From positions 1-59,480 of the forward strand of contig CAZQCK010000001.1 of NCBI GenBank assembly GCA_964591925.1: a DNA stretch of 59,480 nucleotides, given 5' to 3'. Under the pieces are notes generated by a model. It was not told where the DNA came from. It ran no database searches and saw only the letters and a list, made by a program, of their open reading frames with translations. Source of the DNA: an uncultured Desulfobacterales bacterium (lineage in GTDB: Bacteria; Desulfobacterota; DSM-4660; Desulfatiglandales; HGW-15). Below, piece after piece: positions 21,932-58,579 of the stretch (within the stretch, counting starts at the first letter, position 1; the number at the start of each line of letters is the position of its first letter). Both the position numbers and the translations under genes were made by a program.

Positions 21932-23887
<1,956 letters not shown>

Positions 23888-30317: not shown

Positions 30318-31736
30318 TCATGTCCCATTCCACGGCTCGGAAGCGATTTCGCGCACGGCCCTCGCCAGAATGCCCAGTTCTCCGTCCTGAACCGTGCGAA
30401 CATCCAGCAGGACCTGTTCGTTTTCGATCCGGGCTATGATGGGTGGATCATTCGCCCTCAACCGGCCTTCGATCCCGTGGGCGGACATTCGGCCCGGCAC
30501 CAGGGCGAGAAGCCGGGTGGGCAGTTCCAAAAGCGGTAGCGTTCCACCCCCGGTCTTGGACGTTCCATCCGCCAGAGACACGGTGAAGTTGCCTGTGTCG
30601 ATTCTGCCGATTCGTCTTCGAAGGCCTGCAGCCCGTGATCTGAGGCTCTTGTAGGATTGAAATATCATGTTCAGTGTGGGAATGCATTGAACCGCAGCCT
30701 CTTCGTCACGGTACAGCCGAAGGGTCTCCTCCAGGGCGATCAGGGTCAACTTGTCGATCCGCATGGCCCGGTTCAAGGGGTTGGCCTTGACCTTTTCCAC
30801 AAGATCTTTCCTCCCCAGGATGATGCCCGCTTGAGGGCCGCCCAGAAGCTTGTCCCCGCTGAAGGTTACCAGGTCCACCCCGGCGGCGAGAACTTCCCGC
30901 ACTGTGGGCTCACTGGTGAGGCCGTATCGGGAAAAATCCACCAGGCACCCGCTTCCCAGGTCTTCCATGACCGGAATGCCGTGTCGCCGGCCCAGGGCCA
31001 CAAGATCTTGCGTATCAACGTCCTGAACAAAACCCACGAGCTGGAAATTGCTCCTGTGTACTCGAAGGAGGACCCCGGTCTCTGCATGGATCACCTCTTC
31101 GTAGTCGCGCAGATGGGTCTTGTTGGTAGTTCCCACCTCCACCATGAGAGCGCCGCTTTTCCTCATGACGTCCGGAATGCGAAACGCCCCCCCGATCTCC
31201 ACCAACTGCCCCCGGCTCACCACGGCCTCCCGGCCCCGGGCCAGGGTCTCCAGGCAAATGAGAACGGCGGCGGCGTTGTTGTTCACCACCATAGCCGCCT
31301 CGGCCTGCAGCAACTCCCTCAGGATTTCTTCGACGTGGGAGTAGCGACTGCCTCGCCTTCCCTGATCCAGCTGATACTCCAGGTTGCTGTATCCCCCTCC
31401 TATGGAACGTAGCCGCTCCAGAACGCGATCGGCCAGTATGGAACGCCCGAGATTCGTGTGCACGATCACCCCGGTGGCATTGATCACCGGGCGCAGGCTG
31501 GGTTGATCCAGTTCCAGGACCCGTTCAACCACCCGCGGAGAGATCCGGTCGAGTTCCAAAACGGCTGCATCCTCGATCGACCCTTCCGCGATCCCGCGAC
31601 GCAGCTCTTCCAAGACCTCCTGGACCGTCTTGAGCAAAAGGGACCGAGGATATCTCGAGGAAGCCTCCTCGAGGCGGGGGGATGCCATGAGGCGGTCTAC
31701 CGCCGGGATCTTCTGAAACAGGGTGTTCTTTTCCAT
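30318..31736 (-). CDS. selA: L-seryl-tRNA(Sec) selenium transferase
   Basis: 472 aa: IPAVDRLM N-terminus, PLP-lysine region FSGDKLLGGPQAG. Confidence 0.9.
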   Translation of the reverse strand: MEKNTLFQKIPAVDRLMASPRLEEASSRYPRSLLLKTVQEVLEELRRGIAEGSIEDAAVLELDRISPRVVERVLELDQPSLRPVINATGVIVHTNLGRSILADRVLERLRSIGGGYSNLEYQLDQGRRGSRYSHVEEILRELLQAEAAMVVNNNAAAVLICLETLARGREAVVSRGQLVEIGGAFRIPDVMRKSGALMVEVGTTNKTHLRDYEEVIHAETGVLLRVHRSNFQLVGFVQDVDTQDLVALGRRHGIPVMEDLGSGCLVDFSRYGLTSEPTVREVLAAGVDLVTFSGDKLLGGPQAGIILGRKDLVEKVKANPLNRAMRIDKLTLIALEETLRLYRDEEAAVQCIPTLNMIFQSYKSLRSRAAGLRRRIGRIDTGNFTVSLADGTSKTGGGTLPLLELPTRLLALVPGRMSAHGIEGRLRANDPPIIARIENEQVLLDVRTVQDGELGILARAVREIASEPWNGT

Positions 31737-37053: not shown

Positions 37054-37097
37054 GGCAATCCTCCCAGTCAAAAATCTTCATCAAAAATTTTTACGCT

Positions 37098-37160: not shown

Positions 37161-37226
37161 ACCCTATCGGAAGGGAAAAAGCAACGGCGGAGGAACCGCG
37201 GCGAGCCGTCACGGGCAGGTAGAGCA

Positions 37227-45362: not shown

Positions 45363-47489
45363 ATGTACGGGGAGTACGGATACATGGAGGAAGGCCGGCT
45401 GGGGAAGCCTTATAACCTGAGGCTCCTGAGGCGTCTCTTGCCCTTTGCAAGGCCTTACGCGAGAACCGTTCTATGGGCGCTCCTCCTGACGCTCGCGGTC
45501 ACGCTGTTTGATCTGGCGCCGCCCTACCTGTCCAAGGTGGCCATCGACCGGTACATCCTGGCCTCCTGGTACCGCATAGAGCTGGGCGGAGAAGTCTCGA
45601 ACCGCAAACCCCTGGTCCACCTCATCCAACAAGGCCGCCAGGGACGATTCGGTCTCATTTCGGGCGATGCGCTGGAGACCCTGGATCCCGGAACGGTTCA
45701 TAGGCTTCGGCAAGCAGGCACGCTTTCGCAGGATCGTTACTACAGGGTGGCGGCGGAACAAGCATACCACTTGACCGAGGAGGTCCCTTCCAGCCGTGCA
45801 TTCACCCTGGAAGACGGAGCGCTCGCCATACCCGTGGACCGGCTCAGCCGCCTCGACGCCCGGGAGCTGGGCAAAATCCGGCAAGCGGACCTGAGGGGCG
45901 TGGCCGGGATCGGCCTGCTCATTCTCGCCATCCTCGTCCTGTCCTTCGGCTTCGGCTATATCCAGCATGTGCTCCTGGAGAGAACCGGGCAGTTCATCAT
46001 GCATGACATTCGTATTCACCTGTTCGAAAGGATGCAGGCCCAGGCCATGCGCTTCTTTGACCGGCACCCCGTGGGCCGCCTGGTGACACGAGCGACCAAC
46101 GATATCGAGAACCTCAACGAGTTGTTCAAGTCGGTCCTGGTGACGGTATTCAAAGACGTGTTTCTTCTCCTGGGGATTGTAGTCATTCTGCTCGCACTGA
46201 ACTGGAAGCTGGCCTTGATCTGCTTCGCCCTTTTGCCCCTGATCTTCGGGTTGACCCTCCTGTTCAGCACCATGGCACGGGAGGCCTTCCGAGAGCTGCG
46301 CCGGAAGGTGGCAAAGCTGAACGCCTTTCTCCAGGAACGGATCATCGGCATGCGCATCATCCAGCTCTTCACCCGGGAGACGGAGCAGATGAAGGCCTTT
46401 GCCGCCATCAACCATGAGAACTACCTGGCCGGCATGAAACAGATCCGCGTCTTCGCCGTGTTTATGCCCCTGATGGAGCTCGTCGCCTCTTTTGCAGTAG
46501 CCCTTCTCCTCTGGTACGGAGGAGGGCAGGTCCTTCGAGAACAGCTCTCCCTGGGATCCCTCGTGGCCTTTGTGAGCTACATGCAAATGTTTTTCAAACC
46601 CATTCGGGACATCAGCGAAAAATACAACATAATGCAGGCGGCCATGGCCTCCACGGAGCGGATCTTCGAGTTCATGGACCATCCGAGGGAAGAGGCGCAC
46701 GAGCCTTCGAAGCCCGTACTCCCGAAAGAACCGGCGGGCAGCGTGGAATTCCGGGAGGTCTCTTTCGAGTACCAGCCGAAGCAGCCCGTTCTCAAAGACA
46801 TCTCCTTCAGAGTACGCCCGGGCGAGACTGCGGCGCTGGTGGGACCCACGGGGAGCGGAAAAACCACCATTGTTCACCTGATCGAAAGACTCTATGAAGC
46901 CCGAACAGGGGCCATTCTCATCGACGACGTGGAGGTCCGCAGGTGGCCTAGAGCCGAGCTGCGAAACCGCATCGGGCTGGTCATGCAGGACGTGTTTCTC
47001 TTTTCAGGGACCCTGTACGACAACCTGGCTCTAGGCCGAGAAGATGTGACGCGGGAGGACGTGGAGCGTTCTCTTCAGGAAGCGAACGCCCACCACTTCG
47101 TGGGGCGCCTTGCCAAAGGACTTGATCACGAAATAGGTGAAGGCGGGGCCACGCTCTCAGCCGGGGAAAGACAGCTCCTCTCCTTTGCCCGGGCCCTGGT
47201 CGGCGATCCCGCGATCCTGATTCTGGACGAGGCCACATCGAGCGTAGACCCGGAGACGGAGCGTCTGATCCAGGAGGCGATCACCCGGATCACCCGCCGT
47301 CGCACCACGCTGGTGGTGGCCCACCGCCTATCCACGATTCAAGGGGCCGACCGCATTCTGGTCGTGCAGGCAGGGCGCATTCGAGAACAGGGGACGCATG
47401 ATGAGCTCATGGCATCGGGCGGGGTCTACGCACGGCTCAACCTCATTCAAAGGGGAGAAGGCGATTCCGCTTCCATCTCCTCCAAGTGA
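45363..47489 (+). CDS. ABC exporter, fused permease/ATPase, with a long insertion after TM1
   Basis: 708 aa with Walker A GPTGSGKTT and signature LSAGERQLLSFARAL. About 110 extra residues lie between TM1 and TM2. An alternative ATG lies at 45384. Confidence 0.9.
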   Translation: MYGEYGYMEEGRLGKPYNLRLLRRLLPFARPYARTVLWALLLTLAVTLFDLAPPYLSKVAIDRYILASWYRIELGGEVSNRKPLVHLIQQGRQGRFGLISGDALETLDPGTVHRLRQAGTLSQDRYYRVAAEQAYHLTEEVPSSRAFTLEDGALAIPVDRLSRLDARELGKIRQADLRGVAGIGLLILAILVLSFGFGYIQHVLLERTGQFIMHDIRIHLFERMQAQAMRFFDRHPVGRLVTRATNDIENLNELFKSVLVTVFKDVFLLLGIVVILLALNWKLALICFALLPLIFGLTLLFSTMAREAFRELRRKVAKLNAFLQERIIGMRIIQLFTRETEQMKAFAAINHENYLAGMKQIRVFAVFMPLMELVASFAVALLLWYGGGQVLREQLSLGSLVAFVSYMQMFFKPIRDISEKYNIMQAAMASTERIFEFMDHPREEAHEPSKPVLPKEPAGSVEFREVSFEYQPKQPVLKDISFRVRPGETAALVGPTGSGKTTIVHLIERLYEARTGAILIDDVEVRRWPRAELRNRIGLVMQDVFLFSGTLYDNLALGREDVTREDVERSLQEANAHHFVGRLAKGLDHEIGEGGATLSAGERQLLSFARALVGDPAILILDEATSSVDPETERLIQEAITRITRRRTTLVVAHRLSTIQGADRILVVQAGRIREQGTHDELMASGGVYARLNLIQRGEGDSASISSK

Positions 47490-48340
47490 GCCACGACCCG
47501 GTCCCAGATCCTGCGCACGGCCTCTGCAGCCTCCCCTTCCGGGGCGTACTCCACGATGCTCTGCTTTTGAATCATGGCCTTGGTGAAATCCTGGTGAAAG
47601 GGAATCGCGCCCAAAAAGGTGTGTCCCTTTTTCTCCGCGGTCTCACGGATTCGATCGGCCGTCTCGGGATTGATGTCCGCCTTGTTCACCAGGACCATGA
47701 TCGGGACCTTGAAAAAGGATGCCAGGTCCGACACCCGGTCCAGGTCGTGCACGCCGGACACCGTAGGCTCGGCGACCACCAGGGCGGCTGTAGCGCCTCC
47801 CAGAGAGGCGATCACCGGACACCCCACGCCGGGAGGGCCGTCGGTCAACAGAAGCGATCGGCCTTCGCTCTCTGCTGCTTTTCGCGCCTCCTGGCGCACC
47901 AGGGCGACCAGCTTGCCCGAGTTCTCTTCGGCAGGCGAGAGCCTGGCGTGAACCAGCGTTCCGAATCGGGTGTCCGATACGTACCACTCGCCGCACACGT
48001 TCGGAGGAAAATCCACGGCCTTCTCAGGGCAGAACCAGACGCAGACCCCGCACCCCTCACAGTCCAGAGGATCGACCTGAAAGTCTTCTCCAATGGCGTC
48101 CCATCGGCACAGATCCCGGCACAAACCGCACTCCGTGCAGTCGTGTTTACGGATTTGAGCGGTGTTCCCGCTCTGAAAGGGGGTTTGAACCCGAATCGAA
48201 GGGCTGAGAACGAGGTGCAAGTCCGGGGCGTCCACATCCGCATCGCAAAGCACTCCGTCTTCCGCCAAGGCGGCGAAGGCCGCCATCAAGCTTGTCTTTC
48301 CCGTGCCCCCTTTGCCGCTGATCACTACGAGCTCATTCAT
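47447..48340 (-). CDS. MinD/ParA-type P-loop ATPase with inserted 2x[4Fe-4S] ferredoxin domain (COG1149-like)
   Basis: [12 protein letters not shown] deviant Walker A, with CTECGLCRDLC and CEGCGVCVWFCP motifs. 297 aa. Confidence 0.85.
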   Translation of the reverse strand: MNELVVISGKGGTGKTSLMAAFAALAEDGVLCDADVDAPDLHLVLSPSIRVQTPFQSGNTAQIRKHDCTECGLCRDLCRWDAIGEDFQVDPLDCEGCGVCVWFCPEKAVDFPPNVCGEWYVSDTRFGTLVHARLSPAEENSGKLVALVRQEARKAAESEGRSLLLTDGPPGVGCPVIASLGGATAALVVAEPTVSGVHDLDRVSDLASFFKVPIMVLVNKADINPETADRIRETAEKKGHTFLGAIPFHQDFTKAMIQKQSIVEYAPEGEAAEAVRRIWDRVVAHLEEMEAESPSPL

Positions 48341-49236
48341 GGGTTCCGCTCCGGGTCCTGATGGTTCACCATGCTCTCAATACGTTCATATAAGTCCCTG
48401 AACCGCTCTCGCCACTCCGGCACCCTGTCCACCAGGAGCTCTCCTCGCGAGTAGGCCTCGGCGATCTTCCGGTCAAAAGGGATCTCCATCAGGATGGGAA
48501 TACCTTCCTTTTGCGCAAAGGTATGGACGTCTTCATAGCCCATTTCCGCGCGGTTGATGACCAGCCCGCAGGGGATACCCAAAATTTTCACCACCTCGGT
48601 TGCGAGCTTCAAGTCGCTGAGCCCGAAAGGGGTGGGCTCGGTAACCATCAGCACAAAGTCCGTGTCCTTGACGGCTGCAATTACGGGACACGAGGTCCCG
48701 GGGGGTGCGTCTATGATGACCGATTTTTCCGGAAGGGTCTGGGAGCGGACCTCTCGAATCAGGGGAGGCGCAAAGGCCACGCCCACGTTCAACTCGGCGT
48801 CCGCAAAATCCAAACCGTTCCTGTGCCCCAGACGAAGTTGCCCCAGAGGACGGCCCACCTCGGTCACGGCATTCTCCGGGCAAACCCTCATACACCCCCC
48901 GCAGCTGTGGCACAGCTCGGGAAAGGTAATGATTACGTCACCGATCACCGAAATCGCCTTGAATTGACAGAGCTCGGCGCACTGCCCGCATCTCGTGCAG
49001 GCCTCTTCATCCACCTCGGGAACCATGGCGTACACGGTTTCCTTCCTGGTCCACTCCGGCCGGACAAAGAGGGCGCCGTTGGGTTCTTCCACGTCACAGT
49101 CCAGCAACTGGACCCCCGAGCCCAGGGCCAGGGCGAGATTGGTCGCCACGGTCGTCTTGCCGGTTCCACCTTTTCCGCTCGCAATGGAGAGAATCAATTC
49201 CTGTCCCTCGTCATGTATGTGCCACATTTGGCGCAC
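48337..49236 (-). CDS. MinD/ParA-type P-loop ATPase with inserted 2x[4Fe-4S] ferredoxin domain, paralog 2
   Basis: [24 protein letters not shown] and [16 protein letters not shown] overlap with the downstream paralog. The start is ambiguous (49236, 49227 or TTG 49197). Confidence 0.85.
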
Positions 49237-49427
49237 TTGAGTTCGAAGCAGGGAACACCACGCTCATGCGGCATGGTGTGGCCGCAAGCCGGGCAAACAC
49301 AGTTGCCGCCGGGGCCCAGGGCACGGCCGCCGCCGATGCCTCGACCGCCGCCCCTGCCTCGCCCTTGACCGGTCGCGTTTCCTCCCTGTGCACCTTGTCC
49401 TCCACCGCCTTTTCCTTGTGCCGGCAT
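49194..49427 (-). CDS. Small Gly/Arg-rich protein with C-terminal four-Cys zinc-ribbon
   Basis: ATG 49427 follows [23 protein letters not shown]...GRGRGGGRG then CVCPACGH...CAKCG. Resembles the G/R-rich small proteins that accompany NifX-like clusters; the family assignment is tentative. Confidence 0.6.
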
Positions 49428-49590
49428 CTCGTTTCCTCCCTTGCGGTCAATCGGATCATATGACCCCATACTTGCTGATACCGCAAACATTGGTTTTTCA
49501 GGGCCAATTCCCCCTTTTTGACGGCCGCATCTCTTTTAGAACCGGTCAATGCGACCGATGCTGAAAACCCTCACACGGCAGGATTCTCTG

Positions 49591-49935
49591 TCAATGATAG
49601 TCGTGTGTTCCCTTGATGACAGGGATGCCTGTCTTGCCCTGAATGATCCCGGCCAACTCATCGGCATCCGCATAAGGACAACCGGGCTTGGCATTGACCA
49701 GGCAAGAACTCAAGTACACGGCATCCGGCTTGATTTCAGAAAGCCTGGCGGCCATCCCCAGGTTGGGCGCCAGAGACCTGCCCGGACAATCGCATCGAAC
49801 GAACGACACCACCTGGACCGGACTTTCGAACGTGCCCTCTCCCAGGGCCGCAGCCTTCAGGCAGCGCCACTCTCCGGGACAACCGTACCCGCTGTCCATA
49901 TAGGCACCACATCCTACAATCGCCACTTTCTTCAC
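49591..49935 (-). CDS. CGGC domain-containing protein, paralog 2
   Basis: GTG 49935 lies 6 nt after GGAGGAGG. VKKVAIVGCGAYMDSGYGCPGEWRC...FVRCDCPG...KPGCPY. 114 aa. Confidence 0.7.
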   Translation of the reverse strand: MKKVAIVGCGAYMDSGYGCPGEWRCLKAAALGEGTFESPVQVVSFVRCDCPGRSLAPNLGMAARLSEIKPDAVYLSSCLVNAKPGCPYADADELAGIIQGKTGIPVIKGTHDYH

Positions 49936-49960
49936 GAATACCCTCCTCCAATCATCTCTT

Positions 49961-50009
49961 CCGAAAAAAAGTCGGTCTTCAGCGACCTCTATGCCGCCGC
50001 GGCGGCATA
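49961..50009 (-). terminator. Palindrome plus U-tract between the Mrp-NifX and CGGC genes (possible internal terminator/attenuator)
   Basis: Perfect 20-nt palindrome tatgccgccgcggcggcata (49990-50009). On the minus strand it is followed by a short hairpin and ttttttt. Confidence 0.3.
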
Positions 50010-50050
50010 TTCCATGGCCGCACTGAGCTTGACCACCCTCTTCAGAGTGT

Positions 50051-51295
50051 TCAGTGGTCGCAGATGTTGTCCCCGGTGACCAGCGCACCTGCCAGGTATT
50101 GATTGACCAAAGATTCCGGGGCGTCCATGGGTGCACCTATGATCACCTGGATTCCGCTTTCCTTAAACAGCTCCTGGGCTCTCGCACCCATGCCACCTGC
50201 GATTATGACATTGGAGCCCATCTCGCTCAGCCACTTGGGAAGAACGCCCGGTTCATGCGGCGGCGGGGTATGCATTTCCGTACCCTTGATCTTCCCGTCC
50301 TCGGTCTCGACCAGGGCGAACTGGTCGCAGTGCCCGAAATGGGCGCAGAGCTTGCCCTCGACCACCGGGATGGCGAACACCGTTTTTTCCATGTCCGTTT
50401 CCTTTCTTTGCTCGGTTGACGGCTTCTCCTGGGCCTGCGCCTGCGAAGCCGGGCCTTTGCGAAGGACCTCGTCCACTGTCTCGTTGAACGCTCGAGCAAA
50501 AGGCGAGGAATTCGTGTCCAGGCTTCTCAAGGCCCCCTGATCCCCCAGCCGGACCACCTCGGGGTCGATGGGGAGAGTGCCCAGGAGATCGATGCGCTCC
50601 TTCCCGGCCAGCAGGCGGGCCCCATTGGAGCGGAAGAGATCAATGTTACCACCGCAATGAGGGCACAGCAAGCCGCTCATGTTCTCCACCATACCCAGGA
50701 TGTTCATGTTGACCTGGCGGCAGAAGTTGATGGATTTTCGAACATCCGCCAGCGAGATCTCCTGGGGAGTGGTGACGATCAGGGCCCGCGCATCGGGAAT
50801 GGTCTGGGCCACGGTCAAAGGCTCATCTCCGGTGCCCGGGGGTGAGTCGATGACGAGATAATCGAGATCCGGCCATTCGATGTCCGAAATGAACTGGCGG
50901 ATCACGCCGATTTTGAGCGGCCCCCTCCAGATCGTGGCGGAGTCCCGGTTATCGCCCATCAGAAACTCGATGGAAATGGCATGAAGGTTATCCATGCACG
51001 GGACGGGGAGGGCCTTGCCTGTTTTTTGAGAAAGCTGGATTCCCTCTGTCAGCCCCAGCATCCTGGGAATGCTCGGGCCGTGGAGGTCCACATCCATCAG
51101 CCCTACGGAATATCCCCTGCGGGCGAGAAAAAGCGCCAGGCATGCTGCCACACTGCTCTTTCCCACTCCCCCTTTGCCGCTCATGACCAGAATCTTGTTT
51201 TGAATATGGGAAAGTCGATCCTGAATCTCAATATCCTGTTGATCCTGCTGTTCCTTGCGGCCCTTCATGCCGCAGCTCTCTTGGCCTTCCGCCAT
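50051..51295 (-). CDS. Mrp/NBP35/ApbC-type Fe-S cluster carrier ATPase fused to a C-terminal NifX/NifB-like (dinitrogenase FeMo-cofactor-binding-type) domain
   Basis: VMSGKGGVGKSS, CPHCGG, then a C-terminal domain VFAIPVVEGKLCAHFGHCDQFALV...IIAGGMGARAQ. Start at ATG 51295; TTG 51307 is also possible. Confidence 0.85.
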   Translation of the reverse strand: MAEGQESCGMKGRKEQQDQQDIEIQDRLSHIQNKILVMSGKGGVGKSSVAACLALFLARRGYSVGLMDVDLHGPSIPRMLGLTEGIQLSQKTGKALPVPCMDNLHAISIEFLMGDNRDSATIWRGPLKIGVIRQFISDIEWPDLDYLVIDSPPGTGDEPLTVAQTIPDARALIVTTPQEISLADVRKSINFCRQVNMNILGMVENMSGLLCPHCGGNIDLFRSNGARLLAGKERIDLLGTLPIDPEVVRLGDQGALRSLDTNSSPFARAFNETVDEVLRKGPASQAQAQEKPSTEQRKETDMEKTVFAIPVVEGKLCAHFGHCDQFALVETEDGKIKGTEMHTPPPHEPGVLPKWLSEMGSNVIIAGGMGARAQELFKESGIQVIIGAPMDAPESLVNQYLAGALVTGDNICDH

Positions 51296-51303
51296 GGTAT
51301 TCT

Positions 51304-51771
51304 TCAAGCCTCCTTTTTCGGTTTATGCTCCGGGGAGAGAACGCGGAACCGGCACCGGCCGGAACGCCCCTTCCTCGAAGTTGTTTTTGCACACTCATCG
51401 CCTTCTGCAAAAGCGTTTCCCGCCCCGCTCCACCTTCCACGGGGACAGCCGGGCATTCGAAAGGCCTCCTGATCAAGGTTTCCCTGCAGGTAGGCCTGAA
51501 AAACATCTTCCCTGGGGCCGGATACGCCCTGAATCACCTCGATATCCACCGCCCGCAACCGCCGGCAAAAGGGATTTGAAATGGCACTGCAGATGAGGGT
51601 CTGCACGCCGAGCTCCTTCAACCGCGCGCAACGGCGCACAAGGTCATCGCCTTCCAGGCTCACGTTGACTCGCTCGGATGGTTCGGCTTTGGTATCAATG
51701 ATCATAACCCGCGTCGCCGTGTCGAACACGGGAGAAATCTTGTCGCCCCATACTGGAATCGCCACTTTCAT
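51304..51771 (-). CDS. NifX/NifB-like (dinitrogenase iron-molybdenum cofactor family) protein
   Basis: ATG 51771: MKVAIPVWGDKISPVFDTATRVMII. The track ORF extension (METQQ...) lies inside repeat family B. The C-terminal 50 aa are basic and Cys-containing. Confidence 0.8.
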   Translation of the reverse strand: MKVAIPVWGDKISPVFDTATRVMIIDTKAEPSERVNVSLEGDDLVRRCARLKELGVQTLICSAISNPFCRRLRAVDIEVIQGVSGPREDVFQAYLQGNLDQEAFRMPGCPRGRWSGAGNAFAEGDECAKTTSRKGRSGRCRFRVLSPEHKPKKEA

Positions 51772-51782
51772 ACCCTTGCCTC

Positions 51783-51960
51783 GTGCCCATCCATAAACGA
51801 ATTTCGAGCACTGCTGAGTTTCCAATTCAGAAAGGAGAATTCCCCGTCAAGATCAAGGAGGTCACGAGCTCACGCTGAGGCGTACTGCCTTGCGCAGCAC
51901 AATGAACCTCGCTGATCAACGATGAAATCGGCGGAAAAGACCCATTCCGAATGGAAACTC
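51783..51960. mobile_element. MITE-like repeat family B, copy 2 (145-bp unit 51816-51960 plus flanking arm)
   Basis: TIRs are gagtttccaattcagaaagg and cccattccgaatggaaactc. The unit has the same 145-bp length as 24953-25097 in inverse orientation. It sits between two NifX-like genes. Confidence 0.75.
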
Positions 51961-52010
51961 GCCTCACACCCCGGCGGGTGAATAAATCCGGCGTGCGTTG
52001 CGACAATCGT

Positions 52011-52373
52011 TCACATCCAATGGCCATTCACATTCGCCGCTTCGGCGGACTGATAATCCCCGCGCGCGTAAGCCTTGACTGCGTCCTCGATCTTTCCCTT
52101 GACACCCACCACCACCTTGATCCCGGCGGCCTGAAGGACCTTGAACGCCTTGGGGCCGCAGTTTCCAGTGAGAACCGCGGAGGGCTGATGACTCGCAACG
52201 TTCTCCGCAGCCTGAATGCCTGCTCCCTGGGGCAGATCCATGCTCTGGGTGTTTTCCACCACCTCGTACTCCATGGTCTCCGGATCCACCAGGAGAAACC
52301 GGGGCGCACGGCCGAATCGTTGCTCCACTTCTCCATTCAAATCATTTCCCACAGATGTGACTGCTATTCGCAT
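52011..52373 (-). CDS. NifX/NifB-like (dinitrogenase iron-molybdenum cofactor family) protein
   Basis: ATG 52373: MRIAVTSVGNDLNGEVEQRFGRAPRFLLVD...AGIQAAENV. 120 aa. Confidence 0.85.
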   Translation of the reverse strand: MRIAVTSVGNDLNGEVEQRFGRAPRFLLVDPETMEYEVVENTQSMDLPQGAGIQAAENVASHQPSAVLTGNCGPKAFKVLQAAGIKVVVGVKGKIEDAVKAYARGDYQSAEAANVNGHWM

Positions 52374-52414
52374 CCTGAATGTCCTCTCCTCTTTCCGTCC
52401 CGTCCGGCAGCACT

Positions 52415-52431
52415 GTGAAGCGCTCATTCCG
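52415..52431 (-). promoter_or_regulatory. Degenerate copy of the 18-nt motif upstream of the NifX-like cluster
   Basis: The minus strand reads cGGAA-TGAGCGCTTCAC. It matches CTGAATTGAGCGTTTCAG with one deleted base and a few substitutions. It lies 42-58 nt upstream of ATG 52373. Confidence 0.25.
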
Positions 52432-52443
52432 GGGCTGAAGGTT

Positions 52444-52576
52444 GACAAATTCGTAAAAACTGCATCCTCTCGCAAAGACGCTAAGACGCTAAGAAAAAAA
52501 CCTTTTAATATCAATCAGTTCACTTTGCGAACTTTGTGTCTTGGCGCGAAATTTTGACTTTTTACAAGGCCGTCAA
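52444..52576 (+). repeat. Interspersed repeat family A, copy 2
   Basis: gacaaattcgtaaaaactgcatcctctcgcaaagacgctaagacgctaag...ttcactttgcgaactttg...caaggccgtcaa. Confidence 0.8.
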
Positions 52577-52836
52577 GGTTGCTTTCCTTTGAAATGACAA
52601 TTCATCGGTCTGGAAGAGTAAGCCCCGAGGGCCTTCCCCGCCACCGGCGTCTTCTATGCATCGAGCGTGCCATGTCCGAACGCAGCTCAGGCGTCGGCCG
52701 GAACCGACTGGAATATAAGGAATCTTTCAGAGCAGACACTGTGCGGACCGTTCCCGGGCTGAACAGCTCAACCAATCAATACTGCAACGGAAACGGGCTC
52801 GCTCAATTGCATTATCGCAATACATTTGCCGGCCCT

Positions 52837-52963
52837 GACGAATTCGTAAAACCTGCGTTCTTTCGCAAACACGCCGGGAGCGCTAAAAAACCCCTTAATC
52901 TTCATCATTTCACTTTGCAGTCTTTGCGGCCGGCGGAAGATTTTTGCTTTTGCGAGGCCATCA
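52837..52963 (+). repeat. Interspersed repeat family A, copy 3
   Basis: gacgaattcgtaaaacctgcgttctttcgcaaacacgcc...ttcactttgcagtctttgcgg...cgaggccatca. Same orientation as copy 2, about 260 nt downstream of it. Confidence 0.75.
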
Positions 52964-53024
52964 GCTCTGCCGCGGAACAAACGCGGGGTCTGAGTAGGGC
53001 AGGAACAAGGCGGCAGGGAAGGAG

Positions 53025-53053
53025 GCGGGCGCCCGCGGAACCTGCGGGCGCCC
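53025..53053 (-). terminator. GC-rich hairpin downstream of the 67-aa Cys-rich gene
   Basis: 11-bp stem cgggcgcccgc/gcgggcgcccg with a 7-nt loop, about 25 nt after the stop at 53076. No clear U-tract follows. Confidence 0.35.
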
Positions 53054-53075
53054 GGTGAATCGGAGGGGGTAAAGA

Positions 53076-53279
53076 TCAAAGGCCGCAGTCTTCTGCGTAC
53101 TCGGGGCAAAACTCCTTGACGGGAGTCTCATACTTGGCCATGCACTCGCCGCATTCCATCCGGACGTTGGGCACATCCCCGAACTTCTCCCGAATCTCCT
53201 CGGCGCTGAGGTGGGAAACCGCGCTGCAACCGCACTGGGGACAGGCGGTTCGGACCTGGTAGACCTTCTTATCGCTCAT
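53076..53279 (-). CDS. Small cysteine-rich zinc-ribbon-like protein (67 aa)
   Basis: MSDKKVYQVRTACPQCGC...MECGECMAKY...CPEYAEDCG. GGAGAGG RBS. Confidence 0.6.
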   Translation of the reverse strand: MSDKKVYQVRTACPQCGCSAVSHLSAEEIREKFGDVPNVRMECGECMAKYETPVKEFCPEYAEDCGL

Positions 53280-53329
53280 GATCCTCTCCTTTGTTGCCCA
53301 GGCCGCCGGTCATGGGACCCGCGGCGAAA

Positions 53330-53361
53330 AAAATCCCGCCCGTGCCGGCGGGCGGGATTTT
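53330..53361 (-). terminator. Rho-independent terminator after the Sec-containing HdrD-like gene
   Basis: The minus strand reads aaaatcccgcccg-ccggca-cgggcgggatttt, running into tttttttcg. 13-bp stem, 28 nt after the stop at 53390. Confidence 0.7.
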
Positions 53362-53389
53362 GCACTCATGCAACAATCTCGCTCTCTCC

Positions 53390-54685
53390 TTAGAGGCCGA
53401 CCTCTGCCAGGTCCTCACCCAGGTAAGCCCTCTCGTTCTCGCCCAGGACGCCCATGGAGAGGCAGATCAGTGTCCAGAGGTGGACCACGGGAAACCCGCC
53501 TTCGAAATGCTCAGACAGATCGTGGATCTGGGAGTGGCAGTTGTGGCAGGGCGCGATACAGTAACCGGCGCCTGTGGACATGATCTGGTCGAACTTGATC
53601 TTGCCGTACTCTCTCCTCTCCTCGGTGTAGCCGCTCTGAAGGTACCCCCCGCCTCCGCCGCAGCAGAAGTTGTTGGAGCGGTTGGGCTGCATGTCGATGA
53701 AGTTCTCCTCACCCACCACCTTCTTGACCACATACCGCAGGTCCTCGGCCACCGGGTCTCCAAAGGACTTTCTCACCAGCTGGCAAGGATCCTGGACCGT
53801 GAACTTGGCCTGAATGTCCTTGTTCCAGTCCGAGTTCACGGGCAGCTTGCCCTCACGGATCCACTTGGCATAGAGGCGAATGATGCTCTCGATCTCAAAG
53901 TTGTGCTCTACGTTGAATTTCTGCAATCCGACCCGGAATGCAAAGAGCTCGTGCCCTCATTCCGTGTTGAGCCAGTACTTGCACCCGAGGTCATCCACCG
54001 CCTTGGCCTTGACCCGGGTGATGTGCTCCCAGGCCTCCCAGTCCTGGAGGAACATGCAGTAGTTCTCCGCAGCCCAGCCCTTGGTTCCATAGGTCCAGTC
54101 CGCCCCGCCCATGTGAAGGATCTTCCACAGGGGCACCATCTCGTCGGGTTCGGTCACGGGTTCGCGGGAGTTCTGGTTCAGGAAGTACTCTGCACCCTGC
54201 TTGTTGACCGGGGCCTGAAGGTTCTCCCATCCCGGCTGGGTCTCCCGCACCTCTTCCAGGACATCCTCCACCACAAACTGGAAGTCCTCCTCCGAAGCGC
54301 CCATGGCGCTGCAGGCATCGCTTCGAAGGGCCATGTCGCACGAGCCTAAAATGCCCTTGGGACGTTCCTCCCGCGGCCAGGTCTGCCGCGCCAGCCCCAC
54401 CATCTGGGGAATGTCCACCTTCATGGGGCAGGCATGAATGCACCGCTGGCACATGCTGCACATCCAGACCCACGGCGAACTGGTGGCCTCGTCGTAGAGC
54501 CCCAGCGCAAGCATGCGGACAAACTTTCTGGGGTCCATGCCCTCCAGCCCGGTGGCCGGGCAGCCGCTGGCGCACGTCCCGCAGGTCAGACAGAGCTCCA
54601 GGTTGCTGTCCGGTAAAATCTCCTTGATCTTGTCGCGGAACTCGTGCTTCTGATCGCTTAGTTCAAGAACTTCGTTCTCTTCCAT
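53390..54685 (-). CDS. HdrD/TmcB/DsrK-like Fe-S protein with predicted selenocysteine (UGA at 53957-53959), 431 aa
   Basis: Track ORFs 53957-54685 and 53390-53926 share one frame and are separated only by one TGA. Read-through gives ...KYWLNTE-U-GHELFAFRVGLQKFNVEH.... N-terminal CLTCGTCASGCP and CSMCQRCIHACP motifs, C-terminal CCG motifs (NFCCGGGGG, APCHNCHSQ). The U aligns with Cys of GECGHAFRA in the paralog at 55271-56611. Confidence 0.8.
53918..53946 (-). promoter_or_regulatory. SECIS-like hairpin
   Basis: The mRNA is UGA GGGCACGAGC then UCUUUGCAUUCC-GGGUC-GGAUUGCAGAAA. The stem starts about 11 nt after the UGA, has one bulge and one mismatch, and its apical loop contains GGUC as in the E. 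coli fdhF SECIS. Confidence 0.6.
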
Positions 54686-54794
54686 ACACCTTTCCTCTCT
54701 CGTGTTTGGAAATCTCCGGCTTATTCCGCCAGCGCTTCCGGCTTCCCTGTCACAGAGGCCGATGTGCTCGCTGATCCCTTGTTATCGGCGTGAG

Positions 54795-54823
54795 AGTATC
54801 CTCCCCTGTGGAAAAAATGTCAA
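54795..54823 (-). promoter_or_regulatory. Candidate sigma-70 promoter for the Sec-HdrD-like gene
   Basis: Minus strand reads TTGACA-N17-GATACT, in the 149-nt gap after the cytochrome c gene. Confidence 0.45.
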
Positions 54824-54834
54824 GGGATTATGGC

Positions 54835-55218
54835 TCAATCACGCACATGGCATTCCCCGCAGGTGATGGGCCCTGATTTTTCTTCTTCATGACATCCCTT
54901 ACATTTTTTATGGTAGGCGCGCAGCCGATCCACACCGTCGGCCTTCAGCTTGTGGCACTCTCCACAGGGGATGCCCTCCGAGCTCTCTCCCTCTACGAGC
55001 ACGCCGTCCTCATACACATGGTGGCAGACAAAACAATCCTCAATGGTCTCGAAAGCCATGTGCTCCTCATGGGTGAACCGGGACAGGGGCCTCTCGCGAT
55101 CGGGAAACACATCCGGAGGGAAGACCGAGTACTCGTCCTGGGACACGGCCGGCGGAACAGATAGAAACAGGACCAGGAGCAATATGGCTGCAACCAAAGC
55201 GTATCGTTTCGTCGTCAT
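54835..55218 (-). CDS. Tetraheme cytochrome c (cytochrome c3 family, TmcA-like), secreted
   Basis: ATG 55218 follows GGGAGGAG. Signal peptide MTTKRYALVAAILLLVLFLSVPPAVS and four CxxCH motifs (CFVCH, CGECH, CKGCH, CGECH). 127 aa. Confidence 0.88.
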   Translation of the reverse strand: MTTKRYALVAAILLLVLFLSVPPAVSQDEYSVFPPDVFPDRERPLSRFTHEEHMAFETIEDCFVCHHVYEDGVLVEGESSEGIPCGECHKLKADGVDRLRAYHKKCKGCHEEEKSGPITCGECHVRD

Positions 55219-55270
55219 CTCCTCCCTCTCTCCCTTTCGGCCGGGACGGCGTATCGACCCTCTGAACATC

Positions 55271-56611
55271 TCAGCCCTCCAGGGCGTTGGGCTTTTCCAT
55301 GCACTCGTAGATGATTTCCGAAAAGAAGGACAGCTCCATACCCACGTCGTAGGCCTCCATAATATCCTTGAGCCCGCTGTGGCAGTTGTGGCAGGGGGCA
55401 ATGACCACCTCGGCACCCGTGGCTTTGAGTTGGTCCGCCTTGATGCGGTTGCCCTCCACCCGAACCTTCTTGTAAGGCGGGCCGCAGTTGATCACGCCTC
55501 CCCCGGCACAGCAACAGTAGTTGTGCTCCCGGTTGGGGTGCATCTCGATGAAGTTGGAGCAAAAGGCCCTTACGATATCCCGCGCCTTCTCATGGAGGCC
55601 CCGGCCGCGCACGATGTTGCAGGGGTCGTGAAAGGTCACGGGCCGTTCGAACTTCCTGGCCACCTTGAGCCGGCCCTCCTGGAGCATCTGCCAGTAGAAG
55701 TCGATGGCATGCACCACCTCCAGCGGGAAATCCCTCCATCCCAGCCATCGATTGCCCACGTCGTACACGGCCCGGAAGGCGTGCCCGCACTCGCCCATGA
55801 CGATGCGCTTGACCCGCAGCTTCTGGGCCCGCTCGAAATGGCTCCGCTTGAGCCTGCCCATGAGCTCCACATCCCCCGTGAACATAGCCATGTCGCTGTT
55901 GTCCCATCCGGGCATGGAGGGCATGGTCCAGTCCATGCCGCACTCGTTCATGATCACGGCGGCCAGGTAAATGAGCTGGGGCTGGAACTTGGGCTCGGGC
56001 GCGATCACCGAGTACATGATGTCCGCGCCCTCCTTGTCCAGGGGTATGCGAAGCGTGGGGATCTCTTCCCGGGCCTCTTCCTCCTGCCAGAGAACGCTGT
56101 CGATCCACTCGTCCTCCTTCACCCACATCTGGTTCATGGTGACCGAGTGGCTGTGGGCCGTGTCCTGGATGTACTGAGGTGTGATCCCCAGAAGGTGGCA
56201 GAGACGCCGGACCACGGTGATGATGTAGGCCGTGTCGATGCCGATGGGGCAGTACATGGCGCACCGCCGGCACAGGTTGCACTCGGTGTAGGCCACCAGG
56301 GCCACCCGTTCCAGCTCTTCGGAGGTGATGCGGCCGCCCTTTTTCAGGAGCTTCCACAGGGTCTGCTTGACCTTGCCCACCGGGGAGTAGGCCGGATCGC
56401 CGTCATGGGACAGGTAGTAATGGCAGCCGTCCGCGCAGAGCCCGCACCGGACGCAGATCTCCTCGTAGGCCTTGAGTCTCGCCCCGGTCTCCGAACGAAA
56501 GACCCGATTGATCGCCTTTTCGATCTTCTCCGGGGTCAGGGCATCCAGTCCCTTCCGGATCCCGACGTCCACGTGTTTTCTCTCTTCAGTCTTTTCAGCC
56601 GTCGCATCCAT
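55271..56611 (-). CDS. HdrD/TmcB/DsrK-like Fe-S protein (two 4Fe-4S motifs plus CCG domains)
   Basis: 446 aa: CVRCGLCADGCH, CNLCRRCAMYCP, GECGHAF, HDPCNIVR, NYCCCAGGG, APCHNCHSG. Confidence 0.88.
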   Translation of the reverse strand: MDATAEKTEERKHVDVGIRKGLDALTPEKIEKAINRVFRSETGARLKAYEEICVRCGLCADGCHYYLSHDGDPAYSPVGKVKQTLWKLLKKGGRITSEELERVALVAYTECNLCRRCAMYCPIGIDTAYIITVVRRLCHLLGITPQYIQDTAHSHSVTMNQMWVKEDEWIDSVLWQEEEAREEIPTLRIPLDKEGADIMYSVIAPEPKFQPQLIYLAAVIMNECGMDWTMPSMPGWDNSDMAMFTGDVELMGRLKRSHFERAQKLRVKRIVMGECGHAFRAVYDVGNRWLGWRDFPLEVVHAIDFYWQMLQEGRLKVARKFERPVTFHDPCNIVRGRGLHEKARDIVRAFCSNFIEMHPNREHNYCCCAGGGVINCGPPYKKVRVEGNRIKADQLKATGAEVVIAPCHNCHSGLKDIMEAYDVGMELSFFSEIIYECMEKPNALEG

Positions 56612-56633
56612 TCAACGCCTCCTTGAGGCCGCA

Positions 56634-57293
56634 TTACCAGTCCTTGGCCTGTCTCACGTTGCCGAACTCGGAGCCGATGTATCCGCGGGAAAACGGGGAG
56701 AGGAGCATGTGGCTGAGCCTGGTAAAGGGAATGGCCGCCAGCATAATCTCCCCGAACAGGATGTGCAGGATGATCATGACCCGGTAAGGACCGATCTGGT
56801 GGTAGGCCAGAAACCCGGTGAGGAAGGGAAGGAACACGACGGCCAGCACCACCCAGTCCATGGCGGAAGTAACGTACCGCACCTCCCGCAGGAAAACCCG
56901 CCGTGCGGCGAAAAACACGCAGGCCAGAATCACCAGGACGGTCATCACGTCGGCCACGCTCTCCGGCAGGGTCCGGAACCGTACGCCGTGATAGTGGTCC
57001 CAGAGCACCACGTGGGCCAAAAGGAAGACGGGAACGAGCACCAGGCAGATGTGAAACGCGAAGGAGACCATGGTAACAAAGGGATGCCGCCTCGAGTTGA
57101 CCGGCCAGAAGGGTACGGACCAGTGGATGATGGATCGCAGGGCGTACTTGAAGTTCCAATAGGCCAGGACCTGACCGTCCCGGGTCTTGGCCGACCGGTA
57201 CATGGTGTAGATCTTCCGGATCGATCCCAGGACGAACACGGCGAAGGCGATCCAGGCCAGCGGCCCCACGACGAATCCGTAGACTTGGTGCAT
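56634..57293 (-). CDS. Integral membrane cytochrome b (NarI/DsrM/TmcC-like)
   Basis: 219 aa with about five hydrophobic helices and conserved His residues (HWSV, HICL, HVVLWDHYH, HILFGE), as in NarI-type di-haem b subunits. Confidence 0.8.
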   Translation of the reverse strand: MHQVYGFVVGPLAWIAFAVFVLGSIRKIYTMYRSAKTRDGQVLAYWNFKYALRSIIHWSVPFWPVNSRRHPFVTMVSFAFHICLVLVPVFLLAHVVLWDHYHGVRFRTLPESVADVMTVLVILACVFFAARRVFLREVRYVTSAMDWVVLAVVFLPFLTGFLAYHQIGPYRVMIILHILFGEIMLAAIPFTRLSHMLLSPFSRGYIGSEFGNVRQAKDW

Positions 57294-57322
57294 CTTGTTC
57301 TCCCCTGATCGTGCTGCCGGTT

Positions 57323-58579
57323 CTAAAAATCCTCCACGCCGGCGACTATGCGAAGGAATGTACCTTCCCGAATCCCCCGAATGAGCACCTTGTCCCCCTC
57401 CGGGCTGAAGATGGGGTCCCAGGCGCGATCAAACGTCTCTCCATACTCCTTCCCGTCCAGGACGATGGAGAACCGGCCGTTTCGTTCGGCCCGCACCGCG
57501 GCATGCCCGCCGTCCGGGCTGAAGGAGATGGGGTAGATCATGTCGTAACGGCCGGGCCACGGGCCATCGTCCACGATCACGCTCCAATGGCCGTCTTCCT
57601 TTCCCAGGGCCCCGATACGGCGGCCCTCCGGGCTCATGGCCAAATCCGTCACCACACTGAAGGTGTTCTTCCACGGCCGATCATCGACCACCACGGTAAA
57701 CCGGCCATAGGACGGGGCTGCGATCGCAGCGAGGGTCGTTCCGCGCTCGTCAAAGGTCTGATGCCAGAGCTGGCTGTACCGGGCGGGCCAGACCAGGACG
57801 CCGTCCTCAGCCATACCCCATTTACCGCCGCTTCGCACCGGGGCCGCCACCGCCCCGGTCCGGGAATTGAAGGCCGGCTCCCACACCGAGGCGAAGCTTC
57901 GGTTCCAGGGGGTTCCGTCCACCACAACGGTGTAGTCGTACAGGCTCTGCCGAACGTGGGCGGCCACACGCTTTCCCTCAGCATCGAACACAGGGGTCCA
58001 CACGTTCACAAAGTTCCGGTCCCAGGGCCGGCCGTCCACGGCTATGGAGTAACACCCTTTCTGAAACGCCTCGATATCCGCCGCATCCATGGGCACGGTC
58101 TGTACCACCGCAGCCGAATGCTCACCGTCGAGGCTGAGGGTGACATTGCCGGCGTTGCCGAAAAGCTCCGGCCACGGAGTACCGTCCACGGCCGCGCCAT
58201 ATCGCATGTCCTGCTGAACGGCCGCTCCGATCCGGTCACCGGAACGGGAAAAGCACAGGTCCCAGGCAAAGCCGAAGGTGGTTTCCCAGGGGAGCCCCTC
58301 CACGGCCACGGTCCATTCCATTTCCCGGCTGACAAAGGCCGCCATTCGGCCGTCCGGGGAAAAACAGAGCCCCCAGATTTTTTCAAAGGTCTCTTCCAGA
58401 ACCCCCCCGTTCACACAGAGCCCGAACACGGCGTCCTCCAGGTTGACCACCGACGCCAGTCGCTCGCCGTCCGGGCTTGCCACGGGCTCCTCCATCCAGA
58501 TAACATCGCTGGTACAGGCCTTGGCTTCCTGTATCCGCCGCTTTCCCGGCTGCCAAGCCCAGGAGCTTTGCCCTATCAT
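57323..58579 (-). CDS. Tryptophan-rich repeat protein (TmcD-like)
   Basis: 418 aa with about nine tandem units of roughly 45 aa, of the form VxVDGxPWxxxFxxVWxPxFSPDG. AAGGAG RBS. Confidence 0.8.
   Translation of the reverse strand: MIGQSSWAWQPGKRRIQEAKACTSDVIWMEEPVASPDGERLASVVNLEDAVFGLCVNGGVLEETFEKIWGLCFSPDGRMAAFVSREMEWTVAVEGLPWETTFGFAWDLCFSRSGDRIGAAVQQDMRYGAAVDGTPWPELFGNAGNVTLSLDGEHSAAVVQTVPMDAADIEAFQKGCYSIAVDGRPWDRNFVNVWTPVFDAEGKRVAAHVRQSLYDYTVVVDGTPWNRSFASVWEPAFNSRTGAVAAPVRSGGKWGMAEDGVLVWPARYSQLWHQTFDERGTTLAAIAAPSYGRFTVVVDDRPWKNTFSVVTDLAMSPEGRRIGALGKEDGHWSVIVDDGPWPGRYDMIYPISFSPDGGHAAVRAERNGRFSIVLDGKEYGETFDRAWDPIFSPEGDKVLIRGIREGTFLRIVAGVEDF

Follow-up and report, generated by a model that had tools for sequence, protein, structure and literature searches.

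A probable selenocysteine codon in an HdrD-like Fe-S oxidoreductase gene downstream of tmcDCBA in an uncultured Desulfobacterales bacterium

The window analysed here, that is, the whole 59,480-nucleotide stretch of an uncultured Desulfobacterales genome (contig CAZQCK010000001.1), carries on its minus strand a reading frame that runs from an ATG at 54685 to a TAA at 53392-53390, and whose sole internal stop is a TGA at 53959-53957. The open reading frames on either side of this codon, 53957-54685 (242 aa, ATG start) and 53390-53926 (178 aa, TTG start), occupy the identical frame, as the original prediction had stated, and read-through gives a product of 431 aa that reads ...KYWLNTE-U-GHELFAFRVGLQKFNVEH..., in which the predicted selenocysteine (Sec) is residue 243. 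The features of the locus are as follows.

53390..54685, minus strand: predicted selenoprotein gene, encoding a 431-aa HdrD-like (HdrC+HdrB fusion) Fe-S oxidoreductase with Sec at 243
53957..53959, minus strand: UGA codon predicted to be read as Sec (U243), motif T-E-U-G-H
54413..54601, minus strand: HdrC-like domain (aa 29-91) with two CxxCxxCxxxCP [4Fe-4S] motifs
54056..54058, minus strand: codon of Cys210, invariant in the family
53525..53800, minus strand: sole complete CCG domain, C301-X39-C341C342-X37-C380xxC383
53920..53944, minus strand: SECIS-type hairpin, with lower stem 53944-53941/53923-53920, upper stem 53940-53934/53930-53924 and apical loop GGU 53933-53931
53326..53352, minus strand: intrinsic-terminator-like hairpin, 38 nt past the stop codon, with six G-C pairs and a T run behind it, as read from the sequence
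54795..54823, minus strand: sigma-70-like promoter match TTGACA-17-GATACT (a consensus match only), located between tmcA and the selenoprotein gene, which are 150 nt apart
54835..58579, minus strand: tmcD-tmcC-tmcB-tmcA, upstream of the selenoprotein gene
30318..31736, minus strand: selA, L-seryl-tRNA(Sec) selenium transferase, a marker of Sec decoding

The domains of the product are distributed across the TGA. Pfam places Fer4_8/Fer4_17 dicluster domains (aa 29-91) before it, where the sequence also matches the HdrC chains 8rvv_C and 5odc_C (E 3e-17 to 2e-13), and a CCG domain after it (PF02754, 44.8 bits; aa 296-387, with C301, C341-C342, C380 and C383), where sequence comparison matched the second CCG domain of HdrB at E 2e-6 (5odc_B residues 131-270). 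Each half alone is thus an incomplete HdrD-type protein, which bears out what had been claimed from the reading frames. A Foldseek search with the AlphaFold2 model of the product (pLDDT 83) aligned it with EtfD (9ojn) along 455 columns and with HdrB (5odc_B/8rvu_B) along about 290, at probability 1.00. The layout is thus that of an HdrD-type protein, an HdrC-like domain with two [4Fe-4S] motifs followed by an HdrB-like fold; two complete CCG motifs are not present, the first being reduced to C210 and E242-U243-G244 without a CXXC. The complete motif, C301 to C383, is the predicted site of a noncubane [4Fe-4S] cluster, so that one such cluster would be expected and not two. Cys210, an invariant column of the alignment, stands 31 residues upstream of E242-U243 (C210-X31-E-U-G), which is the spacing expected between the first cysteine and the cysteine pair of a CCG motif, and it would be the other surviving residue of a degenerate first motif. 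When aa 125-290 were compared by hhalign with the C-terminal CCG domain, for an internal duplication setting U243 against C342, no match was found beyond the overlap of the two slices. We place U243 at the 'CCG' position because of the C210-X31-E-U-G spacing, the fold match to full-length HdrB and the published analysis of related proteins (PMC10861901).

Could the TGA be a genuine stop? The locus would then encode a 242-aa HdrC-like ferredoxin and a separate CCG protein of about 178 aa initiated at TTG 53926, resembling a split HdrC/HdrB pair. Methanogen HdrC and HdrB are indeed separate subunits, TGA is the usual stop in the window, and both gene callers and GenBank annotate relatives in this way, as 243-aa entries. 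However, the break falls inside the HdrB-like fold, whereas the junction of HdrC and HdrB lies at about aa 120, the HdrB alignment of some 290 columns spans the TGA, and each full-length Cys form is one continuous polypeptide. Between the TGA and the first start codon, moreover, lie 11 codons that are kept as coding sequence in 80 species, with GH invariant and third positions varying, while no conserved start or ribosome-binding site follows the TGA. Taken with the behaviour of the hairpin described below, which is conserved in TGA forms and absent from the Cys form L081, although of the three Cys forms compared a second, L082, has a 6-bp hairpin, this makes two separate genes highly improbable, and a single gene interrupted by a recoded UGA is the reading we follow here.

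The strongest evidence for that single gene is comparative. The TGA is present at the U243 codon in 80 of the 80 closest genomic relatives, which are separate species represented by genomes and metagenome-assembled genomes (MAGs) at 69-89% protein identity, and it lies in each case within [L/V]NTE*GH. Such conservation is far beyond chance, and agrees with the original proposal of one Sec-for-Cys gene in place of two. A homolog search returned more than 2900 homologs, the full-length ones being 430-450 aa long, and all 22 full-length database homologs that were aligned are single polypeptides with cysteine at the residue-243 column, as NTE-C-[G/S]H. The TmcB paralog encoded 600 nt upstream (55271-56611) reads VMGE-C-GHAFRA, and its Cys275 (TGC 55789-55787) falls in the same alignment column. 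The claim that the UGA sits on a conserved redox cysteine, and the alignment suggested as a check on it, therefore both hold. Across the 80 relatives the codons immediately after the TGA behave as coding sequence (GGN CAY G, positions 1 and 2 invariant and third positions variable), and both gene halves are under purifying selection.

These comparisons also dispose of a sequencing error (TGA for TGC or TGT) or a decaying pseudogene, of which the former had been named at the outset as an outcome that would remove Sec. The codon is one base away from a Cys codon, but all 80 of the independent genomes and MAGs compared have TGA at this position, and purifying selection acts on both halves. This refutes the explanation, and we give it a negligible probability. 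Separately, TGA is the ordinary stop of 15 of the 21 genes in the window, and a reassigned genetic code was rejected on that ground.

A hairpin begins 12 nt past the UGA, where about 11 had been predicted, with a 7-bp upper stem and 23 nt between the UGA and the apical loop. Ten of its 11 positions are paired, the exception being U.U at 53938/53926 in the upper stem, at which the window sequence is one of only three among 79 distinct sequences to be unpaired; with the closing G-C pair opened, the loop reads GGGUC. For the 47-nt stretch beyond the UGA the folding energy is -15.6 kcal/mol (z = -2.47, with six of 200 shuffles equally stable), so that the folding originally proposed as a check gives a stable structure, whereas a 76-nt fold that includes the UGA is unremarkable (z -1.21) and its minimum-energy structure pairs the UGA region instead. 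The conserved hairpin is accordingly obtained only from the stretch 3' of the UGA.

Conservation of this structure is visible across the relatives, in which 87.8% of stem cells are paired, against 26-50% when the structure is slid along the alignment. Compensatory changes are found at the loop-closing pair 26:30 (GC 63, UA 14, AU 1) and at the lower-stem pair 19:37 (GC 29, UA 13), and the observed covariation score was reached by none of 500 shuffles. The apical loop is GG[U/C/A] and only its first G (column 27) is invariant; hence the predicted hairpin is real, conserved and covarying, but the exact GGUC loop that had been likened to the Escherichia coli fdhF element is not conserved. The 81 TGA-bearing sequences (80 loci and the window) have a median fold of -14.4 kcal/mol, while the Cys form L081, whose peptide GHELYAFRVGLKKFNI is almost identical, reaches only -0.6 kcal/mol and lacks the hairpin. 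The hairpin thus appears to be specific to Sec-encoding genes and not a by-product of the peptide, a comparison that has three Cys-form controls, one of which (L082) retains a 6-bp hairpin.

Its position, the invariant loop G and the compensatory changes at two strong pairs are those of a bacterial SECIS, and support its designation as a candidate element of this kind. Like the E. coli fdhF-type SECIS, it lies inside the open reading frame directly 3' of the UGA and has an invariant loop G (GGU/GGC); unlike that element, it has a predicted 3-nt loop, no evident bulged U and no similarity beyond the loop G's. Rfam returned no SECIS family match at gathering threshold over the whole window, nor at E<=10 over 53850-54010, where the sole match was a chance snoRNA (E 0.78). 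Coverage of bacterial SECIS elements in Rfam is poor.

Read-through might in principle occur without Sec, by near-cognate insertion of Trp or Cys or by some other recoding. A hairpin could promote read-through generally, and neither selB, selD nor selC (tRNA-Sec) is seen within the 59-kb window. The window does contain selA, as had been reported; it scores 608.7 bits with TIGR00474, whose cutoff is 267.9. Further points against such read-through are that the position is that of an invariant redox cysteine, which is the classical Cys/Sec signature, that the distance and G-containing loop of the hairpin fit bacterial SECIS elements, and that the family is catalogued as selenoproteins with the same UGH motif. 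We therefore regard insertion of another amino acid as very unlikely. When the window was scanned for further pairs of open reading frames joined by one TGA, none of the other matches made a convincing selenoprotein candidate; they look like shadow frames or ordinary gene ends. On the strength of these sequence comparisons, it is very probable that 53390-54685 is one HdrD-type gene of the catalogued UGH family, whose UGA is decoded as Sec243 by way of a SECIS, and whose Sec has the redox role proposed below.

Fe-S oxidoreductase-like (GlpC, COG0247 / PTHR43551) selenoproteins of Deltaproteobacteria have been described by Zhang et al. 2006 (PMC1794560) and reviewed since (PMC9312934, PMC13188914); the GlpC-like family is credited, as cited in later work, to Kryukov & Gladyshev 2004, and its published Sec motif is U-G-H (PMC1794560; PMC13188914, table). 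In the window protein the UGA is aligned with the homologs' cysteine and the motif is U-G-H (...NTE-U-GH...), and by motif, architecture and description we place it in this catalogued 'Fe-S oxidoreductase-like (GlpC/COG0247)' family. NCBIfam GlpC matches are partial (45 bits, N-terminus only) and, together with Fer4_8 and CCG, are consistent with COG0247/PTHR43551 without being decisive. HdrD/GlpC-type architecture, a single Sec in U-G-H, occurrence in sulfate reducers and syntrophs and the existence of Cys homologs are common to both; the window gene differs in adjoining tmcDCBA and not hdrA, mvhD or hydrogenase genes. By description, HdrD4 of Desulfobacterium autotrophicum HRM2 (PMC2702500) is similar, being a soluble HdrD-type selenoprotein of the Desulfobacterales with Cys paralogs. 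The finding is correct, then, but ordinary, since UGH selenoproteins have been in the literature from the mid-2000s, and nothing here is a new kind of system.

The protein had been called HdrD/TmcB-like, and the first part of that label stands, as an HdrC+HdrB fusion of HdrD type. It is no TmcB ortholog, scoring 156 bits against the NF045724 cutoff of 735, which the neighbouring true TmcB passes with 829; orthology to HmcF (179.6 bits, NF045711 cutoff 750) and DsrK (106.3 bits, NF045796 cutoff 400) was rejected likewise. These scores point to a separate, soluble HdrD-like family. With TmcB, HmcF and DsrK it would share two ferredoxin-type clusters, one complete CCG motif and the conserved T/GE-C-GH residue at the lost cluster site, but its usual genetic links are to soluble HdrA-like and MetF/MetV genes and not to membrane anchors. 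From the TmcB of the window it differs in sequence (32% identity), in having Sec for Cys, and in its invariant Cys210, which TmcB lacks. In methanogens the Sec carrier is HdrA, and not HdrB or HdrD. Compared with the methanogen HdrB+HdrC and HdrD proteins (5odc, 8rvu, 7bkb), the window protein has the same fold across the whole HdrB chain and HdrC, and its C-terminal CX39CCX37CXXC is complete, but it is fused, is a predicted selenoprotein, and has a degenerate first CCG motif, with one noncubane cluster predicted in place of two.

The genes immediately upstream are a tmcDCBA set, identified by NCBIfam equivalogs that all score above cutoff (TmcD 604, TmcC 334, TmcB 829, TmcA 137 bits). Only one relative, L001, a member of the Desulfatiglandales with an 89% identical protein, has the selenoprotein gene in this context, and the placement behind tmcDCBA is modestly new. 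It is conceivable, though in our view unlikely, that the selenoprotein and TmcB are Sec and Cys isoenzymes of each other, the former replacing or supplementing TmcB as a selenium-dependent catalytic subunit of the Tmc transmembrane complex. No hdrA, frhD/mvhD, frhG or frhA, the operon partners typical of, though not obligatory for, the GlpC-like family, were found in the window. An HdrA-like gene lies upstream in 46 of the 80 relative loci, and the Cys form L081, which is nested in the Sec clade, has a full hdrA-flpD-X-frhB-hydrogenase operon resembling the published glpC-hdrA-frhD-frhG-frhA operon of GlpC-like selenoproteins.

As to mechanism, the established bacterial pathway would have SelB-GTP-Sec-tRNA(Sec) bound at the hairpin while the ribosome stands at the UGA, leading to insertion of Sec at residue 243. 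DsrK, TmcB and HmcF likewise have only one complete CCG motif, and a catalytic role in reducing di- or trisulfides has been suggested for their T/GECGH residue (PMC10861901). U243 would occupy this T/GECGH position, that is, the surviving cysteine of a lost noncubane-cluster site. A protein or cofactor disulfide may then be attacked by Sec243, serving as the nucleophile or as a ligand close to the cluster, and electrons passing along the two ferredoxin-type clusters and the one noncubane [4Fe-4S] cluster would resolve the Se-S adduct so formed. To our knowledge, Sec as a rule substitutes only catalytic redox cysteines. Its occurrence at T/GECGH would thus lend independent support to the catalytic proposal, which was made recently and without proof from a structure (PMC10861901).

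Automated annotation was expected to split or truncate the gene, and this is what we find: the GenBank entries QTA87333.1, XPS88178.1 and SHO43738.1, from relatives, are each a 243-aa '4Fe-4S dicluster domain-containing protein' ending at the TGA, and the clusters to which these fragments belong have 12, 922 and 91 members. Modestly new is the extent of this truncation, which affects the GenBank entries of three relatives and more than a thousand members of their clusters, all of them 243-aa "ferredoxins". Since gene callers split the gene, an intact HdrD-like disulfide reductase would be overlooked systematically in metabolic reconstructions of Desulfobacterota. The linkage to HdrA-like and MetV/MetF genes in most relatives hints that this enzyme may be concerned with electron supply to methylene-tetrahydrofolate reductase in sulfate reducers that oxidise their substrates completely. 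For the wider family, a Sec at the T/GECGH position would provide a natural 77Se spectroscopic probe, with which a ligand of the noncubane cluster could be distinguished from a free nucleophile in DsrK-type enzymes.

The reading frame bears out the original prediction that two neighbouring ORFs are halves of a single gene. From the ATG at 54685, which is preceded by GGAAAGG, to the TAA at 53392-53390 on the minus strand, one TGA (53959-53957) is the sole interruption of a frame shared by both ORFs (53957-54685, 242 aa; 53390-53926, 178 aa with a TTG start). Read-through yields a 431-aa protein (...KYWLNTE-U-GHELFAFRVGLQKFNVEH...) whose residue 243 shares an alignment column with Cys275 (TGC, 55789-55787) in the GECGH motif of the paralogue TmcB (55271-56611, minus strand), the position at which the UGA had been placed. 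By Pfam, the ferredoxin-type dicluster domains occupy aa 29-91 and the CCG domain aa 296-387, in the order first described; the TGA thus falls between an electron-transfer part and a catalytic part.

With the fused protein as query, more than 2900 homologues came up in the database, and the best 120 of them are full-length (about 430-450 aa, 56-69% identity); in all 22 full-length homologues aligned, the residue 243 column is Cys, as NTE-C-[G/S]H. Scanning one genome per species by pattern and tblastn gave 593 relatives; the best 80, at 69-89% identity, belong to Desulfobacterales, Desulfatiglandales and related MAGs and to the isolates Desulfonema magnum, Desulfosarcina variabilis, Desulfopila aestuarii and Desulfospira joergensenii. 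Every one of these 80 carries TGA at the same codon, in the context [L/V]NTE*GH, and a sequencing error or a pseudogene is therefore excluded. In the codons directly 3' of the TGA (GGN CAY G..), first and second positions are invariant and third positions vary, so the frame must be translated there, well ahead of any restart codon. Of the 21 confidently identified window genes, 15 end normally at a TGA, so a reassigned genetic code is ruled out. Four other long ORFs (346-510 aa) drew no match from Pfam or NCBIfam under the thresholds applied; at the 59% G+C of this sequence, some of them may be shadow frames:
6945-8477, plus strand: long ORF
35848-37305, plus strand: long ORF
21854-22960, minus strand: long ORF
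23911-24951, plus strand: long ORF

The SECIS-like hairpin described behind the UGA proved to be conserved and covarying:
53944-53920, minus strand: SECIS-type hairpin, from the fold of the window sequence and an 81-sequence alignment
The 47 nt 3' of the UGA fold at -15.6 kcal/mol (z = -2.47), with the stem starting 12 nt and the loop 23 nt from the UGA. In the alignment of 81 TGA-bearing sequences (the 80 loci and the window, column 1 being the T of TGA), the upper stem pairs columns 20-26 with 30-36 (CAGUCCG/CGGACUG) and is also recovered by RNAalifold, the lower stem pairs columns 16-19 with 37-40, and the loop is GG[U/C/A] with an invariant G at column 27. Across these columns 87.8% of cells are paired, a share that drops to 26-50% once the partner columns are shifted by 1 to 3 positions; the pair that closes the loop is G-C in 63 sequences, U-A in 14 and A-U in one, pair 19:37 is G-C in 29 and U-A in 13, and none of 500 shuffles matched the observed covariation score. 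Pairing is kept even though the compensatory changes swap amino acids (Arg/Leu/Gln; Val/Ala/Glu), and the Cys-form locus L081, which encodes nearly the same peptide (GHELYAFRVGLKKFNI) in non-pairing codons, reaches only -0.6 kcal/mol, whereas the 81 TGA-bearing sequences have a median of -14.4. No Rfam family matches the hairpin; its position and loop G agree with described bacterial SECIS elements (PMC1794560). In the window copy a single U.U mismatch interrupts the upper stem (columns 22:34; 53938/53926). Of 79 distinct relatives, 76 have G-C at this place, and the closest, L001, has U.C; Phe replaces Val here in both the window and L001 lineages. Perhaps the lower stem, fully paired in the window, compensates. 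The TGA of the best 80 relatives, the Cys of the 22 aligned homologues and the conserved hairpin support the Sec-for-Cys interpretation.

In a rough neighbour-joining tree without bootstrap, all 81 Sec forms fall in one clade, and five of the 22 Cys forms (database proteins P0001, P0004, P0005, P0006 and P0008) are nested inside it, which is consistent with occasional Sec-to-Cys reversion. L082, a nested Cys-form locus, keeps a 6-bp hairpin at the SECIS position (4727-4771; GCCUUU AUG GAAGGC) that may be a remnant of such a conversion, while L081, likewise nested, has lost it.

In a PDB profile search, aa 6-118 matched HdrC (E down to 3e-17) and aa 279-413 matched HdrB in its second CCG domain. 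An AlphaFold2 model (pLDDT 83, pTM 0.86) aligns with M. smegmatis EtfD over 455 columns and with the whole HdrB chains 5odc_B, 8rvu_B and 7bkb_B over about 290 columns (probability 1.00); the protein is thus an HdrC and HdrB fusion of the HdrD type. A complete CCG motif is found only C-terminally (C301-X39-C341C342-X37-C380xxC383), and all that is left in the first CCG-fold half is the invariant C210 and, 31 residues further on, E242-U243-G244, which by this spacing and its 'xCG' pattern is the predicted CC-G element of the motif. DsrK, TmcB and HmcF are described as having a single noncubane [4Fe-4S] cluster and one leftover strictly conserved Cys, in T/GECGH, which is proposed to be catalytic (PMC10861901). 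The window protein has in common with them one complete CCG motif and a leftover residue at the T/GECGH position but differs in that, judged from sequence, Sec takes the place of the cysteine. Orthology with TmcB, HmcF or DsrK is rejected, as the scores (156, 180 and 106 bits) fall below the respective cutoffs (735, 750 and 400), and identity to the neighbouring TmcB is only 32%.

Selenocysteine is more nucleophilic than cysteine and has a lower pKa. In the mechanism that we propose, the hairpin at 53944-53920 would direct SelB-dependent Sec insertion at UGA243, electrons would enter via the two ferredoxin-type clusters and pass to the noncubane cluster, and Sec243 would attack a substrate disulfide or trisulfide, giving a Se-S intermediate to be reduced by the cluster; alternatively, Sec243 might transiently ligate the noncubane cluster. 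The window does contain selA, as had been noted:
30318-31736, minus strand: selA (TIGR00474, 608.7 bits, cutoff 267.9)
It stands alone without an adjoining selB, with a SIS-domain gene downstream and a tRNA-His upstream (31991-32066, plus strand). Neither selB nor selD was found among the window ORFs, nor a tRNA-Sec anywhere in the 59-kb window.

The selenoprotein gene lies downstream of tmc genes, across a 150-nt gap with a promoter-like match, and beyond its 3' end come a strong terminator-like hairpin, a small Cys-rich ORF and a cluster (47447-52514, minus strand) that resembles the ORP ('orange protein') gene clusters in sulfate reducers:
54835-58579, minus strand: tmcD-tmcC-tmcB-tmcA in transcription order, all above NCBIfam equivalog cutoffs
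53076-53279, minus strand: 67-aa ORF with two CxxC pairs (CPQCGC...CGEC), directly downstream of the terminator
52011-52514 and 51304-51825, minus strand: two small proteins matching the MrpORP C-terminal domain
50051-51307, minus strand: MrpORP
48337-49236 and 47447-48340, minus strand: Fe-S/ParA-type NTPases
The maximal TmcA ORF starts at GTG 55416, overlapping tmcB; a signal-peptide-like start, MTTKRYALVAAILLL, suggests that the true start lies near 55218. The 67-aa ORF is 82% identical to its L001 counterpart and is matched significantly by no Pfam family, DUF2688 scoring weakly and below cutoff. Among the 80 loci, the whole order from tmcDCBA to MrpORP recurs only in L001, a MAG from Desulfatiglandales with 89% identity (L001 1-8513 against window 50051-58579), and in the other 79 no tmc genes adjoin the selenoprotein gene. 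A large HdrA/HdrL-like flavoprotein gene lies upstream in 46 of the 80, with MetV (DUF5981) downstream in 22 and methylenetetrahydrofolate reductase downstream in 30, which suggests an Hdr-MetFV-type module; L045 1-7121 and L043 1-5317 are examples of loci so flanked. One Cys form sits in an operon of hdrA, flpD, the selenoprotein homologue, frhB and NiFe hydrogenase.

An 'Fe-S oxidoreductase (GlpC)' selenoprotein family was listed in Deltaproteobacteria by Zhang et al. 2006 (PMC1794560), recurs in the Olavius symbiont study (PMC1976440) and appears as COG0247/PTHR43551 with the Sec motif 'UGH' in reviews of 2022 (PMC9312934) and 2026 (PMC13188914). A Sec-containing HdrD4 is described in the genome paper on Db. 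autotrophicum (PMC2702500). As the window protein shares this family's architecture, motif and taxonomic range and, in its relatives, operon type, we regard it as an ordinary member, matched by published descriptions; the finding is not new, both the selenoprotein family and the catalytic role proposed for the Cys at this position being known already. Automated annotation does truncate the gene, as anticipated: for D. magnum, D. variabilis and D. aestuarii, the deposited proteins are N-terminal fragments of 243 aa named '4Fe-4S dicluster domain-containing protein/ferredoxin'; their clusters contain 12, 922 and 91 sequences, nearly all of 243 aa, and the following GenBank entries stop at the TGA:
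L017: QTA87333.1
L043: XPS88178.1
L045: SHO43738.1
In keeping with this truncation, the best protein-database match to the fused query is only 69% identical, compared with up to 89% for genome-encoded relatives. Of minor interest are this widespread mis-annotation of Sec-HdrD genes and the tmc-adjacent context of the selenoprotein gene in one lineage, and the natural Sec may be usable for probing how DsrK-type enzymes work.
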